Assembly: GCA_002352465.1 (NCBI GenBank)
Contig: DEIN01000008.1
Coordinates: 64,564-128,563, forward strand
Direction of reading: 5' to 3'
Origin: Patescibacteria group bacterium UBA2773
GTDB lineage: Bacteria; Patescibacteriota; Minisyncoccia; Moranbacterales; DUUL01
DNA: 64,000 bases
Positions 3,864 through 64,000 of the stretch are shown one piece after another; positions within the stretch are counted from its first letter, which is position 1, and each line of letters opens with the position of its first letter. A model generated the notes under the pieces. The model was not told the origin of the DNA and made no database searches. It was given only the letters and a program-made list of their open reading frames with translations. Made by a program: the position numbers and the translations under genes.

Positions 3864-3961
3864 TTTTATTTTTATTACTTATTACGGAACCGTTTTTATA
3901 AGTTTTTCCGCCATAGGCGGGTTCGCCTATGGCGAAAATTTTATAAACTTTGAAAATGAAT

Positions 3962-57795: not shown

Positions 57796-58155
57796 TCAAA
57801 GTTGATTTTTCAAATCAACTCCTTTCTCAAGAATTCGCATGGCTTTCCCAATCGAGTTTAACGCTTTTATATCTCTTGTAATTTCTAAGATATCAAATTT
57901 CCAGCAAAGAATACCAAAAAAAGGAAATACAAAATGAAGATAGCAATACCAAAAAAAATTGATAAACCAAAAATCTTTAACAACCTTTTCATAGAAATCA
58001 CCATCTAATTTTTTGTTTTTCGCAGCATCTATAAGTATTGCTGAAAATACAAGAAGTTCGGCATATACGAAGAACAACACTCCTCCTGCCATAAAAATAT
58101 TAGAGAAAGTATTGCAAAAAAAAGTATTGAATACCAAAATCAAATTGAAATCCAA
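57796..58155 (-). CDS. hypothetical membrane protein
   Basis: ORF track. Confidence 0.35.
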   Translation of the reverse strand: MDFNLILVFNTFFCNTFSNIFMAGGVLFFVYAELLVFSAILIDAAKNKKLDGDFYEKVVKDFWFINFFWYCYLHFVFPFFGILCWKFDILEITRDIKALNSIGKAMRILEKGVDLKNQL

Positions 58156-58478
58156 CCTATAATCGCTCCCATCAAAACTTCCATGGATACTTTAAACATT
58201 TTTTTCTTTGTCATAACACTTCCCTCCCCAAAAAGTTTACCTTAAATTACCCCTAAATTTTCAAAGAAACTATAGTCTAGCAGATTTCCGCCATAAAATT
58301 AACTCTTTTCTTCCCAAATCACTTTTTTTAAATTTTACTATCATGCGACGTAGTATGGTAGTATTTTATTTTTTCATTGATTGATCTCTATAGTCTTCTA
58401 TTTCAATTTACAGTCGATAATAAATCTTAAAATCTTTTCAATCTTATTTTTTTCAGGTAAGCTATTTAGGAATTACCA

Positions 58479-58549
58479 TCGAGAATCGTCTAATGGTAGG
58501 ACAACAGGTTCTGATCCTGTCAATTGGGGTTCGAATCCCTATTCTCGAA
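58479..58549 (+). tRNA. tRNA-Gln (anticodon CUG)
   Basis: Hand-folded: acceptor TCGAGAA/TTCTCGA with U1:A72, D-arm GTCT/GGAC, anticodon stem ACAGG/CCTGT loop TTCTGAT, T-arm TGGGG-TTCGAAT-CCCTA. Confidence 0.8.
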
Positions 58550-58555
58550 CAAAAC

Positions 58556-58583
58556 AAGCCTGCAAGGGCTTTTCTTTATTTTG
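58556..58583 (+). terminator. Rho-independent terminator after tRNA-Gln
   Basis: AAGCC-TGCAAG-GGCTT followed by TTCTTTATTTTG. Confidence 0.5.
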
Positions 58584-58765
58584 TCTAAAAACCCTTGAAA
58601 AGGGTAAAACTCCCTCAATTTTACCGTAATGGTTAATTTTTATTTTTCATTACTAAATATTGAATAGTTACTTACTTAATGATAACATATCCTTTCAATG
58701 ATAATCCTGTTTTGGGATATTCCAAAATAGGTTTTAAACTAAACTATAATCTATCATTAAAAAAT

Positions 58766-58987
58766 ATGTCAAAAAATATTTATACAAAGGAATATAAGAG
58801 ATTATTAGAGAAATTAAAACAAGCGAGAAAAGATTCTGGATTAACTCAACTAGAAATTTCTCAAAAAATAGACAAGCCTCAATCTTTTATTTCCAAATGT
58901 GAATTAGGCGAAAGAAGAATCGACCCCATTGAATTATCGAAATTTGCAAAAATTTACAAAAAGGATATTAATTTTTTTATTAAATAA
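58766..58987 (+). CDS. XRE-family HTH protein, candidate R-M controller (C) protein (start adjusted to MSKNIY)
   Basis: HTH LTQLEISQKIDKPQSFISKCELGERRIDPIELSKFAKIY; 73 aa; immediately precedes endonuclease gene; TATAAT ~18 nt upstream of ATG. Confidence 0.7.
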   Translation: MSKNIYTKEYKRLLEKLKQARKDSGLTQLEISQKIDKPQSFISKCELGERRIDPIELSKFAKIYKKDINFFIK

Positions 58988-58996
58988 ATTAGAATT

Positions 58997-59560
58997 ATGA
59001 AAATCAAGCAACACAAAGCAAAAGTTTTTAATCAAGATTGTATATTAGAGCTAATGACTTTTAATAAAAGTGACGGCAAAAAATGGAAAAGACTTTTTGA
59101 TATGTGGAAAAAATTAAAATTAAGTTTGCGTGATTATAAGTCTCGAGAGCCAAATTTTCCTGAAGGATTATCAGAAGTGGCTTTTTGTTTGTTTTCTGGA
59201 TCAAAAAGATTCATATCTTTGAAGGGAAAATCAGCAGCTTCTTTTGATACTTTTAACACTGAAACTGGAAAGGCAGAGCAAATTAAAGCTTGTAGTGTAA
59301 AATCTGATCTAACTTCTTTCGGCCCTAATTCAAAATGGAACGATTTATATTTTTTAGATTTCTACAACGAAGGAAAGCTTGATGGGACTTTTAATGTTTA
59401 TAAAATTCCTTCAGAATCAATTTACAACATGAAAGTTAACAAAAAACAGACAATGAAACAGCAACAAAATCAAGGCAAACGACCAAGATTTAGCATTACT
59501 GACAAAATAATAAAAGATAAAAAGCTAAAACCAATCGCAGAAAACGTAAAAGTTTGGTAA
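58997..59560 (+). CDS. putative type II restriction endonuclease (small, PD-(D/E)xK-like; Bsp6I-like size)
   Basis: 187 aa; candidate catalytic block SFDTFNTETGKAEQIK; convergent and 8 bp from a C5-MTase; downstream of C-protein gene. Confidence 0.55.
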   Translation: MKIKQHKAKVFNQDCILELMTFNKSDGKKWKRLFDMWKKLKLSLRDYKSREPNFPEGLSEVAFCLFSGSKRFISLKGKSAASFDTFNTETGKAEQIKACSVKSDLTSFGPNSKWNDLYFLDFYNEGKLDGTFNVYKIPSESIYNMKVNKKQTMKQQQNQGKRPRFSITDKIIKDKKLKPIAENVKVW

Positions 59561-59568
59561 ATAGAAAA

Positions 59569-61143
59569 TTATTCGATTGCCTTTATCATTTTTTTAGCCA
59601 CAGCTTCCAAAACAGTTACTGTCACGGAATTTCCAGCTTGTTTATATAAAGCAGAATCAGAAAGATCTTTCGGCAAGATGAAGCTTTTAGGAAAACCTTG
59701 TATTCTAAAACATTCCAAAGGGGTTAATTTCCTGATGCCTTTGTTGTCTTTTATAATTGGTACATTATGTCCACCCATTCCCATATTAGCCGTTAAGGTT
59801 GGACAAACACATTTTTTATTTTCTCTAACATATTTTCGTCTCCATTGATAAACAGTGTTTTTATCAACAACAAAATCTTTTATTTTTTCATACAAAGGTT
59901 TACCTTCATAATAATATTTTTTATCAATATTCTTTTCTAATAAATCTTGCACGCTTACATTTAGTTTTACTGGATCAGGAAACTCAAAATTTTCTAAATG
60001 TTTTTTGTCTTTGAATCCAACAATGTAAATTCTTTCTCTATTTTGAGGAACATTTCCAAATTCCATACTATTTAAAACTTTGGCATCTGTGTGATAACCA
60101 AGATCTTTAAGTTTTTTCATTATTATTTTAAATGTTTTTCCTCCATCATGACCTTTCAAATTTTTTACATTTTCTAGTAAAAATCCTTTCGGCTCTCTGG
60201 ATTCGATAATTCTAGCAACATCAAAAAACAAATTCCCTCTTCCTTTTTCGTCTTTGAATCCATGTCTGTGACCAGCGATTGAAAATGCTTGACAAGGAAA
60301 TCCGCCCAAAAGAAAATCAAATTCTGGCAAATCATCAATTCCAATTTCTCTTATATCTTCAACGATTAATTTGGATCTTTTAAAATTTAAATCATAAGTT
60401 TTTTTACAATGTTCATCAAAATCATTAGCAAAAACAGTTTTGAATCCAGTTTTTTCAAATCCTAATCTTATTCCGCCCACTCCAGCAAATAAATCAATAG
60501 TTCTTAGTTTTTTTTGATTGGTGGGTTTAATGTCATTTTTAAAGCTTCTAACAATTTTAACTACAACGCCTCTGATTTCAACTTCTTCTCTGTAAAAGGG
60601 CAACATTGTTTGATTGGCTGGTTGTAATCTAAAGCAATTTTTCTCTCGGTAGATTTTTTTTAAAGTTGTTTCATTATCATCTATTATTGCAACAACAGTT
60701 TGACCATTTTCGGCAGATGATTGTTTTTTTATTACCACAATATCACCATCGAATATTCCTTCCTCAATCATACTTTCTCCTTTTACCTGTAAAGCATAAT
60801 ATTCTTGATTTTTTTGAATTTCTTTTTGCAAAATAGGAATTGTTCCTCTTTCAACTTCAATCGCTTCGATTGGTTTTCCGGCCGTAATAATACCAACAAT
60901 AGGAATATTGATTATTTTTTTTATTTTATTTTTTATTACCGGAACAATGCCTCTAGCAGAACTCCCTTCTTTATTTAGAAAACCTTTTTCTGATAAAGTT
61001 TGAATATGCTGATGCACTGTAGAAATAGCAGAAAGTTTAAAATGTTTTTTTATTTCTTCAAAAGTAGGAGATATTTTATTCTTTTTTATGTAACTTTTAA
61101 TGTAGTCCAAAATTTGTTTTTGTCTTTTTGTCAGAGTTGGCAT
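59569..61143 (-). CDS. LexA (wHTH + S24 autopeptidase) fused in-frame to DNA (cytosine-5)-methyltransferase
   Basis: Residues 1-200 align with LexA along its length (LTKRQKQILDYI...SARGI; cleavage-site AG in VGIITAGKP; Ser in KGESM; Lys in TTLKKIYR); residues ~205-524 carry C5-MTase motifs I FAGVGG, IV GFPCQAFS, VI ENV, VIII QNRERIYIVG, X QAGNSV. Confidence 0.85.
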   Translation of the reverse strand: MPTLTKRQKQILDYIKSYIKKNKISPTFEEIKKHFKLSAISTVHQHIQTLSEKGFLNKEGSSARGIVPVIKNKIKKIINIPIVGIITAGKPIEAIEVERGTIPILQKEIQKNQEYYALQVKGESMIEEGIFDGDIVVIKKQSSAENGQTVVAIIDDNETTLKKIYREKNCFRLQPANQTMLPFYREEVEIRGVVVKIVRSFKNDIKPTNQKKLRTIDLFAGVGGIRLGFEKTGFKTVFANDFDEHCKKTYDLNFKRSKLIVEDIREIGIDDLPEFDFLLGGFPCQAFSIAGHRHGFKDEKGRGNLFFDVARIIESREPKGFLLENVKNLKGHDGGKTFKIIMKKLKDLGYHTDAKVLNSMEFGNVPQNRERIYIVGFKDKKHLENFEFPDPVKLNVSVQDLLEKNIDKKYYYEGKPLYEKIKDFVVDKNTVYQWRRKYVRENKKCVCPTLTANMGMGGHNVPIIKDNKGIRKLTPLECFRIQGFPKSFILPKDLSDSALYKQAGNSVTVTVLEAVAKKMIKAIE

Positions 61144-61295
61144 TTTTGTATTTGATTTATTTTTTATTAAGCGTATAATTTCATTATAACCGAAAATTTA
61201 CCGAAGTGCAAATTGAATTTTAACGATTATTAAAAATTAAATAAACTATATGAAAAAAAGTGGTTGTCAAACTTCGAGAAGAATAATTTAAAAAT

Positions 61296-62156
61296 ATGAA
61301 TTATTTACCTCAACCGATAAAAGACTTAGCAACAGCAAAATTATCAAAAGTCGCAGATAAGTTTGTTGATTTTGTTATTTTGAAATACACAGGAAAATCG
61401 ATTAAAGTTTTTGAAGCTGAAAGTGATATTGAGGCTGACAAAGTTAAGTCAAGATGGGAAGTACTAGAAAAGCCTTTTTGGTTACAAGCAGAGGCAACGA
61501 AAATGGGACGACAATATTCTAATTTTGGAAATACTTTATCAAAAAGTTCAAAAATGATTATTACATCAGAAAATAAAATTGCTGATGACAATGATGTTTT
61601 CTGGGGGTTACTAGAACACTCAAAAGAGATTTCAAACGATGAAATGCAGGAATTAATAGCAAAGATTATTGCAGGAGAATATAACGCACCAGGTACTTAT
61701 TCAATGAGCATGCTCCAAATTATTAAAATGCTCGGCAAAAGCGAGCTAGAATTGTTTGAAAAAATTTGTAGCTTATTGATAAATAGCGATCAAATACCAC
61801 AAGATTTATTTTCTTTACCTGAAAATGCTAAAGAATTTATGAATGAACTCGGATTAGATTTTAGGAGCCTTCAGTTACTGCAAAGTCTTGCCTTATTTTT
61901 GCCAAATGATATGACCAGATCAATGAAAAATCATGAGAAGAAAAATTTTAAAATTGTTTATTTTAATAAAAATATTTTATTTTCACCGATTACACCGGGA
62001 GATGTAAATACATTAAAAATTAGCATACCTGGATTCTTTGGACTTTCTCCCGTTGGTAAACAGTTATTAAAACACTTGAATCCCAAGCCTAATGACCATT
62101 ATTTTAATTGGCTGAAGGATAACTATAAAATTTCTAACTATAAAATTCTTGAATAA
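61296..62156 (+). CDS. hypothetical protein in R-M island (possible abortive-infection/defence accessory)
   Basis: ORF track; no confident motif; location divergent from MTase. Confidence 0.35.
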   Translation: MNYLPQPIKDLATAKLSKVADKFVDFVILKYTGKSIKVFEAESDIEADKVKSRWEVLEKPFWLQAEATKMGRQYSNFGNTLSKSSKMIITSENKIADDNDVFWGLLEHSKEISNDEMQELIAKIIAGEYNAPGTYSMSMLQIIKMLGKSELELFEKICSLLINSDQIPQDLFSLPENAKEFMNELGLDFRSLQLLQSLALFLPNDMTRSMKNHEKKNFKIVYFNKNILFSPITPGDVNTLKISIPGFFGLSPVGKQLLKHLNPKPNDHYFNWLKDNYKISNYKILE

Positions 62157-62253
62157 TTACATATGAAGATATTTGATAAATTCTTGTTATTAATAATTTA
62201 AAATATTTTGCAGATAAGATTAAAATACACGAAATAATATGCAATAATAATCC

Positions 62254-62382
62254 CATGAATATATTATGGAAGTTGAATGATTTAAGAAACGATATAAGCC
62301 ACAATCGAATTGATGATCTGAAATATAATGGTCAGAGCTTATTTCCAAAAGAAAAAAAGGGAAAGATTATTGGATTATTTTA
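62254..62382 (+). CDS. short ORF with HEPN-like Rx4H motif (LRNDISHN), possible gene remnant
   Basis: Hand-translated MNILWKLNDLRNDISHNRIDDLKYNGQSLFPKEKKGKIIGLF. Confidence 0.2.
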
Positions 62383-62421
62383 AAGCTCAAGAAATTTACG
62401 AACAAAAAATCAAAGACGCAA

Positions 62422-62919
62422 TTGATAAAATTTAAGAAAAATATTATGGGACGAATAGAAATACTAGAAAAACTAAACATAGAATTAAAAAAAGATATTC
62501 ATACTGAATGTCAGGTGGTTTATATTTTATCTAAGATTAGGAAATGTCTTGAGATCAATAATCAAAAAAGTGAATATAAATATTTAAACTTTTATTGTAA
62601 TTGGGCTTTACATTCAAAAATTAATAGAGCTGAACCAGTGGCAGATATTATAAGAGAATTTATAAACGACAAGGATAATGGAAAATTTTTGCAATTTGAT
62701 TATTTAATAAAAGATTTAAGAAGATTTTTTAAAGATAATTCACTTTCGAAAAAATTATTTGAAACTGAAAATTATTTAAGATTCGCTAATTTATTAGTCG
62801 AAATTTATTCGGATACTCCGCTGGAGATTTACTGTGAAAGAAAAAGAATAATTACAATAAAAAAACCACTCAAAAAGTTAACAGAAAGTGTCTTTTCTAT
62901 TGCCTATGAAATTAAATAG
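62422..62919 (+). CDS. hypothetical protein
   Basis: ORF track. Confidence 0.35.
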   Translation: MIKFKKNIMGRIEILEKLNIELKKDIHTECQVVYILSKIRKCLEINNQKSEYKYLNFYCNWALHSKINRAEPVADIIREFINDKDNGKFLQFDYLIKDLRRFFKDNSLSKKLFETENYLRFANLLVEIYSDTPLEIYCERKRIITIKKPLKKLTESVFSIAYEIK

Positions 62920-63451
62920 TTATGTAAATTTAAAGTTCAATATAAAAACCCGATTGTTAAATTTTGAAAATAATAAAGTCTATGATAAATGAAAAAATAG
63001 AAAAATTTTTAAGAAATTTAATTTTAATAAGCATAAATTTAAAAATCAGGCTTTTTATACAGACGGTAGTCTAGGTTTCAGCGTTAGAAAAGATTCATTT
63101 AATAACGATGGAAACGCCACACAACTATCTGTTTATGTTTATGAAAATGATACAAGCAACAAAGATTCCAATAGAAAACCTCTTGTTATAAATACAACTT
63201 ATGGGATAGTAACTTCGGATGGTGGTATCAGAATTCGCTCCAATCCGAAACTTAGTGATCCTGTTGATTTTGAATCACACGGTTCATATTTCTATGATAT
63301 TAAAACAGAAAAATTTTATAAGAAAAATAAAAAAATTAATGCCGATAAAATCATTGAAGAAATTTATAATAAACATATAAAATCAACCAGATTTTTTGGA
63401 GGTTTTTGGCTTAGATCAAAAATATTTTTTTGGAAATTCTTTCTGCGGTTA

Positions 63452-63904
63452 TTGTTCTGGTCTATATCAAAAATATTTTATTTATTGCTTTATATTATTT
63501 CGGGGGATAAATATTCCTATGAACCATTTTTCGAAGAAGAAACTTTGAATGGAAAAATATTTAAATCTCGACTTAGACCGCCAATTGAAAATGTAAAAAA
63601 TGATGAAAAATTAAAAGAAGATCTAAAGAAAAGCGCAAAAATTAGTTTTTTTAATCATGAAGTTAGACATTGGCCAATAGTATTTTACTCAATATCGCAC
63701 GGATTATTTTATGTACTATTTATGTTAAAAAATTATAAACCTATTATTTTAATAACAGTATTTAAAAACAACTTTTTAACAATAATATACGTAATCTTGT
63801 CACTTTGGCTTGTTGAGACAATTACACCAAAATGTTTAATATTTTTGATTAAAATTTTTTCTAGATTGTCATTTACATCTCAATATAAATCTATAAATAT
63901 TTAG
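63452..63904 (+). CDS. membrane protein; reading frame is open ~440 nt further upstream without canonical start
   Basis: ORF track gives TTG start at 63452; same frame open back to a TGA near 62995 with no ATG/GTG/TTG. Confidence 0.35.
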   Translation: MFWSISKIFYLLLYIISGDKYSYEPFFEEETLNGKIFKSRLRPPIENVKNDEKLKEDLKKSAKISFFNHEVRHWPIVFYSISHGLFYVLFMLKNYKPIILITVFKNNFLTIIYVILSLWLVETITPKCLIFLIKIFSRLSFTSQYKSINI

Positions 63905-64000
63905 TTTTTTATTTTCCTATATTTTCCATTTGAATATAAAAAATACAAAGCTAAATTCGTCTATTGTTGAATTTTAGTTATTCAATATTCATCAACCTCC

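Follow-up and report, generated by a model that had tools for sequence, protein, structure and literature searches.

What would a complete LexA repressor, with its self-cleavage module still in place, be doing at the front of a DNA methylase? The question is raised by a single gene of 524 amino acids (aa) on the minus strand (59569–61143, ATG start) of a 64,000-nucleotide stretch of DNA from Patescibacteria group bacterium UBA2773 (NCBI GenBank assembly GCA_002352465.1, contig DEIN01000008.1, positions 64,564 to 128,563; referred to as the window), in which LexA is fused to a C5 cytosine methyltransferase within a type II restriction-modification (R-M) cassette. Our answer, to which we attach a probability of roughly 0.55, is that the fusion acts as a self-cleaving autorepressor that would make methylase expression responsive to DNA damage. 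Directly in hand for this answer are the domain architecture, the invariance of the key LexA residues, the position of an operator in the fusion's own promoter, the covariation of this operator with the recognition helix, the portability of the LexA module among methylases, and a nuclease gene that is free of the operator. How a host avoids being killed by its own nuclease is a central question for R-M systems, especially when repair or recombination yields unmethylated DNA, and a self-repressing methylase freed by a universal damage signal would provide type II systems with a safeguard that is simple and genetically encoded. To our knowledge, type I systems are the only ones in which a safeguard that responds to damage is known (i.e., restriction alleviation).

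The fused protein and its relatives

An original prediction, read from the letters of the window, had described the first ~200 residues of this open reading frame (ORF) as colinear with LexA, and the whole as a three-domain protein. In agreement with this, the lexA equivalog model of NCBIfam (TIGR00498) aligned its positions 1–202 (of 203) with aa 1–201 of the fusion (169 bits vs. a cutoff of 110.95), and Pfam returned, in this order and all on the minus strand, LexA_DNA_bind over its full model (PF01726, 8.7e-15; aa 1–65, 60949–61143), Peptidase_S24, i.e., the C-terminal domain of LexA (PF00717, 5.4e-28; aa 81–195, 60559–60903), and DNA_methylase (PF00145, 1.7e-93; aa 214–521, 59581–60504). 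The second full-length NCBIfam match was to the dcm model TIGR00675 (342 bits), and the UmuD-type model NF007621 matched as well (2.6e-17). In a PDB sequence search, the LexA part was aligned over its full length with Thermotoga LexA (3k2z, 2.4e-31) and with E. coli LexA, and the methylase part with M.HhaI (1.4e-60 over 313 aa), while the domain scan gave no XRE/HTH_3 match in the protein. The union of LexA and a C5 methylase in one three-domain protein is real beyond reasonable doubt.

The sequence motifs on which the original prediction had been built were all present in the translation, both those of LexA (VGIITAGKP, KGESM and TTLKK) and those of the methylase (FAGVGG, GFPCQAFS, ENV, QNRERIYIVG and GNSV), the methylase domain containing motifs I, IV, VI, VIII and X as well as a target-recognition domain (TRD). 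The LexA winged-helix domain carries the recognition helix S41-T-V-H-Q-H46, and the S24 domain the catalytic dyad, with Ser124 as the nucleophile and Lys162 as the general base. The predicted self-cleavage bond lies between Ala88 and Gly89 (codons at 60877–60882), which align with the cleavage region of E. coli LexA in the PDB matches, and the spacings between cleavage and catalytic positions are at most one residue off those of the E. coli protein (Ala84, Ser119 and Lys156). In 84 aligned C5 fusions, the Ala-Gly bond, Ser124, Lys162 and the methylase motifs were invariant, and the scissile bond and the Ser/Lys dyad were also invariant in 51 fusions of mixed methylase class and in 54 fusions from metagenomes. 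The linker of ~15 aa between LexA and methylase (about aa 201–213, 60505–60543) has the lowest conservation in the protein (mean column consensus of 0.41), and in the 84-sequence alignment the extremes were this junction (aa 201–215) at the low end and the TRD at the high end (0.87).

Far from being an isolated case, the fusion is a member of a large undescribed family that is common in Patescibacteria. Records of the identical protein exist at NCBI, JGI, ENA and Logan, and the best 120 database relatives listed all contained the three domains (513–542 aa, 67–100% identity), the organism, where given, being Patescibacteria, Moranbacteria or Paceibacterota. A scan of species representatives (one genome per species) gave 290 relatives, the best 80 of which were retained and were without exception full-length fusions (63–76% identity), their named titles being mostly Moran-, Pacei-/Parcu-, Magasanik-, Uhr-, Shapiro-, Giovannoni-, Staskawicz- and Nomurabacteria (i.e., Patescibacteria lineages). 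At least 502 relatives came from an independent metagenome scan, and the fusion ORF was uninterrupted in 85 of 85 fetched loci from independent assemblies. In viral contigs, only methylase-only relatives (at most 63% identity) and no LexA-methylase fusion were found, which gives no evident reason to regard the fusion as a device of phages.

In databases, these proteins go under the names "LexA repressor", "transcriptional repressor LexA" or "cytosine methyltransferase". Full-text literature searches, the coverage of which did not extend to the 2017 paper on the Patescibacteria SOS response by Sanchez-Osuna, Barbe and Erill, did not turn up any account of LexA-methylase fusions, nor is LexA mentioned in a 2025 R-M review that treats both methylase-repressors and restriction alleviation (PMC12707154). 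The earlier statement that the fusion could not be placed in a known family needs correcting in so far as it suggested a singular case, the family being large, concentrated in a poorly understood and largely uncultured group, and joined to many methylase classes.

Two side observations concern the records themselves. Many fusion records bear the automated labels "uncultured Candidatus Saccharibacteria", Bdellovibrionales or Gammaproteobacteria, and a few contigs are titled Promethearchaeota, Rhabdochlamydiaceae or Eubacteriales (labels and titles as given in the records); such oddly labelled contigs (e.g., loci L006, L016, L069 and L080) may be mis-binned Patescibacteria or real transfers. Furthermore, the best type II methylase model of PADLOC (PDLC03272, 421 bits) aligned with aa 155–523 of the fusion and thus started ~60 residues inside the S24 domain, suggesting that the seeds of this model may include truncated or full fusions of the LexA-methylase kind.

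A direct repeat in the fusion promoter

The upstream regions of 84 loci have a promoter in common, in which a direct repeat (period of 11 bp, consensus TTCGGT-N5-TTCGGT) is situated between the –35 and –10 boxes. According to the sequence and a promoter scan, the window copy of this promoter (61183–61211, minus strand) consists of a –35 box (TTGCAC, 61211–61206), the repeat TTCGGTaaattTTCGGT that takes up the whole 17-nt spacer (61205–61189), and a –10 box (TATAAT, 61188–61183). Since the repeat occupies the whole spacer between both boxes, accumulated methylase would be predicted to switch off its own synthesis.

The window contains one exact copy of this operator, at the fusion promoter, which was also the sole intergenic match to a relaxed pattern, and neither a second box in the window nor an operator upstream of the window nuclease gene or C gene (see below) could be found. 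A strict pattern (i.e., with identical 5-mers) gave 69 matches at fusion promoters across the 84 loci, with no TTCGG-type repeat elsewhere in 677 kb of related loci, and none of 82 loci had the operator upstream of the nuclease gene. An operator through which the LexA part would regulate its own gene had been foreseen by the original prediction, and the conserved promoter element that covaries with the helix supports this part of it; its shape differs from the expected one, as no palindromic LexA box was found upstream of the fusion and the conserved element is a direct repeat.

The half-site of the repeat changes together with the recognition helix. Half-site TTCGG occurs with helix S-T-[VI]-H-[QE]-H, TTCTA with S-T-A-H-[YHF]-[YH], TTCGA with His or Tyr at helix position 5, and TTCAG or TTCTG with S-G-V-Y-Q-H. 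After addition of 80 metagenome loci, which brought the set to 157 non-redundant promoter/helix pairs, a Gln or Glu at helix position 5 (Q45 in the window) was found 71 times with a CGG half-site and five times with another core, while any other residue at this position was found once with CGG and 76 times with other cores (CTA, CGA and similar). The association recurs in fusions to unrelated methylases. No other evidence available speaks as strongly as this covariation for binding of the direct repeat by the fused LexA domain, and on these in silico grounds we consider operator binding and autoregulation of the fusion promoter highly probable. With one helix position tracking two operator bases, the fusions also form a clean set of natural data on how LexA recognises its operator.

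Three further elements recur around this promoter. The motif TGTGGATAA(C), which complements the DnaA-box consensus TTATCCACA exactly, lies ~21–23 nt upstream of the operator (e.g., 3919–3928 of locus L095). It was present just upstream of the –35 box in 37 of 83 C5-fusion promoters (52 of 83 when up to one mismatch was allowed), and 49 of 79 metagenome fusions, of various methylase classes, had a looser DnaA-box match, with only 15 exact copies of TGTGGATAA elsewhere in 667 kb. It is missing from the promoter region of the window (61212–61295) and from the three stand-alone lexA promoters inspected. The motif could couple methylase expression to replication initiation, or could mark the edge of a mobile module.

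In many fusion 5′ untranslated regions (e.g., of L116, L136 and L142), a GTCAA(T) motif recurs 8–20 nt before the start codon, at the usual place of a Shine-Dalgarno sequence, with a weaker "aatcaaat" counterpart in the window (61150–61160). Finally, in 12 of 84 loci a divergent gene for a Vsr (very-short-patch repair) endonuclease adjoins the fusion promoter (e.g., 4508–4909 of L001 and 3491–3901 of L007, both on the minus strand), its start codon being a few bases from the DnaA-box-like motif, and may share the LexA-controlled region. The window contains no Vsr gene.

A portable module in a variable cassette

When the LexA part alone (aa 1–205) was searched against 1.8 billion cluster representatives, its closest relatives (42–63% identity) were mostly long proteins with the LexA part at the N-terminus, and stand-alone LexA proteins (~200 aa) first appeared at 46% identity or lower. 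LexA_DNA_bind and S24 were present in each of the 51 long representatives scanned, and the other recurrent domains were DNA methylase or generic methyltransferase domains, i.e., N6_N4_Mtase (30), D12 (7), Eco57I (7), N6_Mtase (5), MmeI (4), C5 (3) and TaqI_C (2). Named members among these long relatives were labelled Patescibacteria or Nealsonbacteria. Likewise, the 54 complete long ORFs among the best 80 of the metagenome relatives all combined LexA and S24 with, by family counts, a DNA methylase domain. The module is thus joined to C5, N4/N6, D12, Eco57I/MmeI-type and TaqI-type methylases, and reading by eye revealed the same promoter and operator on a gamma-class N6A fusion, on a Dam-like fusion with a C gene, and on an Eco57I-type fusion that was followed by a C5 methylase and a type IIS nuclease of the Alw26I family.

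In a few loci the two parts are separate, a LexA gene of 196–221 aa with the same operator being located directly before a methylase gene (773–1363 and 1350–3884 of L171; also L173 and L151). Two of these loci (L171 and, with the same layout, L173) independently place the LexA gene before an 845-aa double methylase (C5 and N6A). Since the module occurs before methylases both fused and separate, the functional unit would be a lexA-type repressor controlling a methylase gene, of which the fusion is the commonest form.

Three stand-alone lexA genes from the same clade carry an 11-bp-period direct repeat T[TA]CG(G) between the –35 and –10 boxes or over the –10 box (4960–5000 of L096, 2965–2995 of L099 and 2950–2980 of L100, one genome being labelled Candidatus Shapirobacteria), and the LexA box of these lineages therefore appears to be a head-to-tail repeat and not a palindrome. 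Because these genes have the same promoter layout, a lexA gene seems to have been acquired by the fusions along with the autoregulated promoter that controls it. The shared operator layout further suggests that the LexA of the host and that of the cassette probably each recognise the other's boxes, with cross-talk to the host SOS response as a probable consequence.

The cassette itself is a type II R-M system, as had been proposed. The fusion gene is convergent with, and separated by 8 bp from, a putative type II restriction endonuclease of the Bsp6I family (58997–59560, plus strand; PF09504 RE_Bsp6I, 9.2e-13; PADLOC REase_II, 7.8e-30). This gene is preceded in the same orientation by an XRE-type C-like gene of 73 aa (58767–58987, plus strand), which ends 9 nt before the nuclease start at 58997 and lies within the 102-aa ORF (58679–58987) on which the HTH_3 match was found (4.3e-10). 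Upstream of it, a C-box-like element ttttGGGATATTCCaaaatAGG (58710–58735, plus strand) can be assigned with low confidence; tandem GGAATAT/GGGATAT motifs occupy the equivalent place upstream of C-like genes elsewhere, and the window copy is partly degenerate. Control by a C protein, as put forward by the original prediction, turned out not to be general, with the C-like gene present in only 17 of 82 cassettes. In 16 other loci, homologues of it (1e-20 to 1e-27) are located ahead of nuclease genes from five different families. The C-like gene is an optional accessory, and the LexA module on the methylase is the constant regulatory feature.

The nuclease side of the cassette is variable. A convergent ORF was found in all 82 C5-fusion loci with downstream sequence, mostly at –4 to +10 nt from the fusion end, and a tightly convergent downstream ORF in 43 of 52 metagenome fusion cassettes. 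Sorted by family, the convergent ORFs of the 82 loci make up at least seven unrelated groups of putative nucleases (three with restriction-enzyme family matches): a Bsp6I-like family (21 loci, including the window), an NgoFVII-like family with a full-length match to PADLOC REase_II (11 loci), a family with a weak REase_II match (10 loci), a PD-(D/E)XK family (9 loci), and three families without annotation (13, 11 and 7 loci). Methylase TRD identity was 0.816 both within and between partner families, and the nearest fusion had the same partner family in 22 of 82 cases vs. ~12 expected by chance. As the TRD does not segregate with the partner family, one methylase specificity would have repeatedly swapped its (isospecific) nuclease partners. 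Bsp6I cuts GCNGC and NgoFVII cuts GCSGC, and the specificities of these two partner families point to a GCNGC-type methylase. Among 17 palindromes, GCNGC also showed the strongest depletion in the window (47 observed vs. 75 expected, z = –2.9), a weak depletion that is suggestive rather than decisive, and the fusion methylase probably modifies this site.

The window is chromosomal (~30% G+C) and carries genes for ParB, FtsW/RodA, ATP synthase gamma, LeuRS and similar functions, with no second Dcm gene among them. A tRNA-Gln(CTG) gene (58479–58550, plus strand) lies 216 bp upstream of the C gene, and beyond the cassette the region (57800–64000) has a G+C content of 24–28% and a reversed GC skew, with a DUF2806 protein (61296–62156) and ORFs without family match among the neighbours. 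The cassette region looks like a small island adjoining a tRNA gene; no att-like repeat of tRNA-Gln was found within 57–64 kb. A minus-strand sigma-70-like promoter (TTGACA-18-TATAGT, 11 of 12 positions matching; 58743–58772) overlaps the start of the C gene and points out of the cassette; it may be a chance match or an antisense promoter.

Predicted self-cleavage, its alternatives and known systems

As a self-cleaving autorepressor, the fusion would work as follows. The winged helix of its LexA part would bind TTCGGT-N5-TTCGGT in its own promoter, and the repressor, lying across the spacer, would block RNA polymerase and so impose negative autoregulation on the methylase. The S24 domain having kept both its Ala-Gly bond and its Ser/Lys dyad, self-cleavage at Ala88-Gly89 is predicted to be triggered by DNA damage, presumably through RecA on single-stranded DNA, whether RecA is activated by general damage, by repair synthesis that creates unmethylated sites, or by self-restriction. 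Cleavage would detach the DNA-binding domain and leave the S24-methylase part in one piece, and release of the promoter would then cause a burst of presumably active methylase. The nuclease gene, being without an operator and under separate control (in the window possibly by the C-like protein), would not be induced. As a result, the ratio of methylase to nuclease would rise, i.e., there would be a damage-triggered shift to protection, which might shield unmethylated products of repair or recombination or counter self-restriction. We think it probable that self-cleavage is physiologically used, and put the chance that its outcome is increased protection at even or somewhat lower. As for the original prediction, its observation is confirmed and its interpretation is partly supported, i.e., for the architecture and, in silico, for autoregulation, while the link to DNA damage that it drew is a plausible prediction.

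Several points weigh against this reading. DNA binding and cleavage are predictions, and the invariant Ser and Lys residues could in principle be kept for folding or dimerisation. The association between helix position 5 and half-site (Fisher p = 2.6e-36) is uncorrected for shared ancestry, and LexA dimers normally bind inverted repeats, which makes a head-to-tail repeat unexpected. The GCNGC specificity is drawn from two partner-nuclease families and a weak site depletion. An AlphaFold2 model from a 51-sequence alignment (overall pLDDT of 75, with 28–37 in the S24 region) adds nothing. Moreover, E. coli LexA cleavage fragments are degraded by ClpXP and the S24 domain would be left on the methylase, so that damage might lower methylase activity instead of raising it.

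The alternative that survives best is that the LexA part is a DNA-binding and dimerisation module for plain autoregulation, e.g., for timing on cell entry, with neither a role for cleavage nor a link to damage. The C-terminal domain of LexA is indeed its dimerisation domain, and plain autoregulation would be sufficient to explain the operator and would match the behaviour of SsoII/Ecl18kI/EcoRII-type methylases (PMC12707154). Nevertheless, we hold it to be unlikely, as the Ala-Gly bond, the Ser and the Lys are invariant in ~190 aligned fusions with overall identity as low as 28–40%, and an S24 domain serving dimerisation only is hard to square with this because dimerisation would require neither the scissile bond nor the dyad.

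If self-cleavage is accepted, the sign of its effect could still be reversed, in that cleavage might destabilise or inactivate the methylase so that protection falls upon DNA damage or phage-induced RecA activation and the nuclease kills the cell, by way of abortive infection or post-segregational killing. Such damage-triggered suicide would fit with R-M cassettes acting as addiction modules, with the mobile and variable contexts of the fusions, and with an S24 fragment that remains on the methylase, LexA fragments being protease substrates in E. coli. It is made quite improbable by the fact that cleavage would also free the promoter of its repressor and should raise synthesis, that the methylase domain is complete and set off from S24 by a flexible, poorly conserved linker, and that there is no sign of the methylase needing the DNA-binding domain for activity.

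The methylase could also be a passenger on what is in fact the organism's only LexA, with the repair regulon as its main role. NCBI does name the fusions "transcriptional repressor LexA", the lexA equivalog cutoff is exceeded, the operator layout is that of the stand-alone lexA promoters of the clade, and the 64-kb window holds no second LexA or S24 gene. The gene is nonetheless always found in a variable, mobile R-M cassette without conserved synteny, a second operator is absent from the 64 kb of chromosome and the 677 kb of related loci, and the attachment of the module to many different methylases suggests that it belongs to the cassettes. In addition, stand-alone lexA genes occur in lineages labelled Patescibacteria (Candidatus Shapirobacteria), a class label shared by fusion loci L056 and L074, and we consider a general SOS repressor very improbable. 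Lastly, that a lexA and a methylase gene were joined by a sequencing or assembly error or by a recently lost stop codon, for which the unfused gene pairs elsewhere might be cited, is ruled out by the junction being intact and in frame in each of the 85 independent loci and throughout the 120 listed clusters (63–100% identity), as had been argued for the window from its seamless junction.

A broader version, in which a portable module of lexA promoter plus LexA wires the methylase into the RecA/LexA damage circuit and cassettes and host SOS response regulate each other through the box type that they have in common, is put forward tentatively; if true, no type II restriction system before these would have carried a damage sensor of its own, and the cassette might supply the only LexA in genomes without a separate lexA gene.

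Compared with known systems, the fusion resembles the LexA SOS repressor (1jhh, 3jso and 3k2z) in its winged helix, Ala-Gly site, Ser/Lys dyad and own-promoter operator. It agrees with LexA at the sequence level in everything except size, being 524 aa long with a 320-aa methylase attached and residing in a mobile R-M cassette, whereas LexA stands alone at ~200 aa; moreover, its operator is a direct repeat and that of LexA normally an inverted one, and neither the 64-kb window nor the 677 kb of related loci revealed any regulon apart from its own promoter. The self-cleaving S24 fold likewise serves as a damage-sensitive switch in phage CI/LexA-like S24 repressors and UmuD, but these are not known to be joined to any DNA-modifying enzyme. 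The window cassette shares with C-protein systems of the PvuII, AhdI and Esp1396I type (PMC2175313) a small co-oriented HTH gene before the nuclease gene and the convergent C-R/M layout, with a candidate repeat motif upstream of the HTH gene; unlike in those systems, the C gene is present in only a minority of the related cassettes.

The outcome proposed here is most akin to type I restriction alleviation, in which ClpXP degrades HsdR after DNA damage (PMC12707154). In both cases the balance would move from restriction to protection following damage (PMC12707154, PMC4231737 and PMC11109961), but type I alleviation is post-translational and relies on a host protease acting on the nuclease subunit, whereas the fusion would act transcriptionally, through self-cleavage of a repressor that is itself fused to the methylase.

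The closest parallels in design are the methylase-repressors of the SsoII/Ecl18kI/EcoRII/MspI type, which are also C5 methylases with an N-terminal DNA-binding extension and an operator at the methylase promoter (bound, in the case of the fusion, by prediction). Their extension is a simple HTH of ~70 aa with no protease domain, whereas that of the fusion is a complete LexA of 200 aa with a self-cleavage module. They usually act on divergent or overlapping promoters of the nuclease and methylase genes, whereas the genes of the fusion cassette are convergent and the operator is confined to the methylase side. Unlike the SsoII-type extension, the LexA module is common to all major methylase classes. 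The fusion works like the SsoII/Ecl18kI/EcoRII methylase-repressors but stands outside that class.

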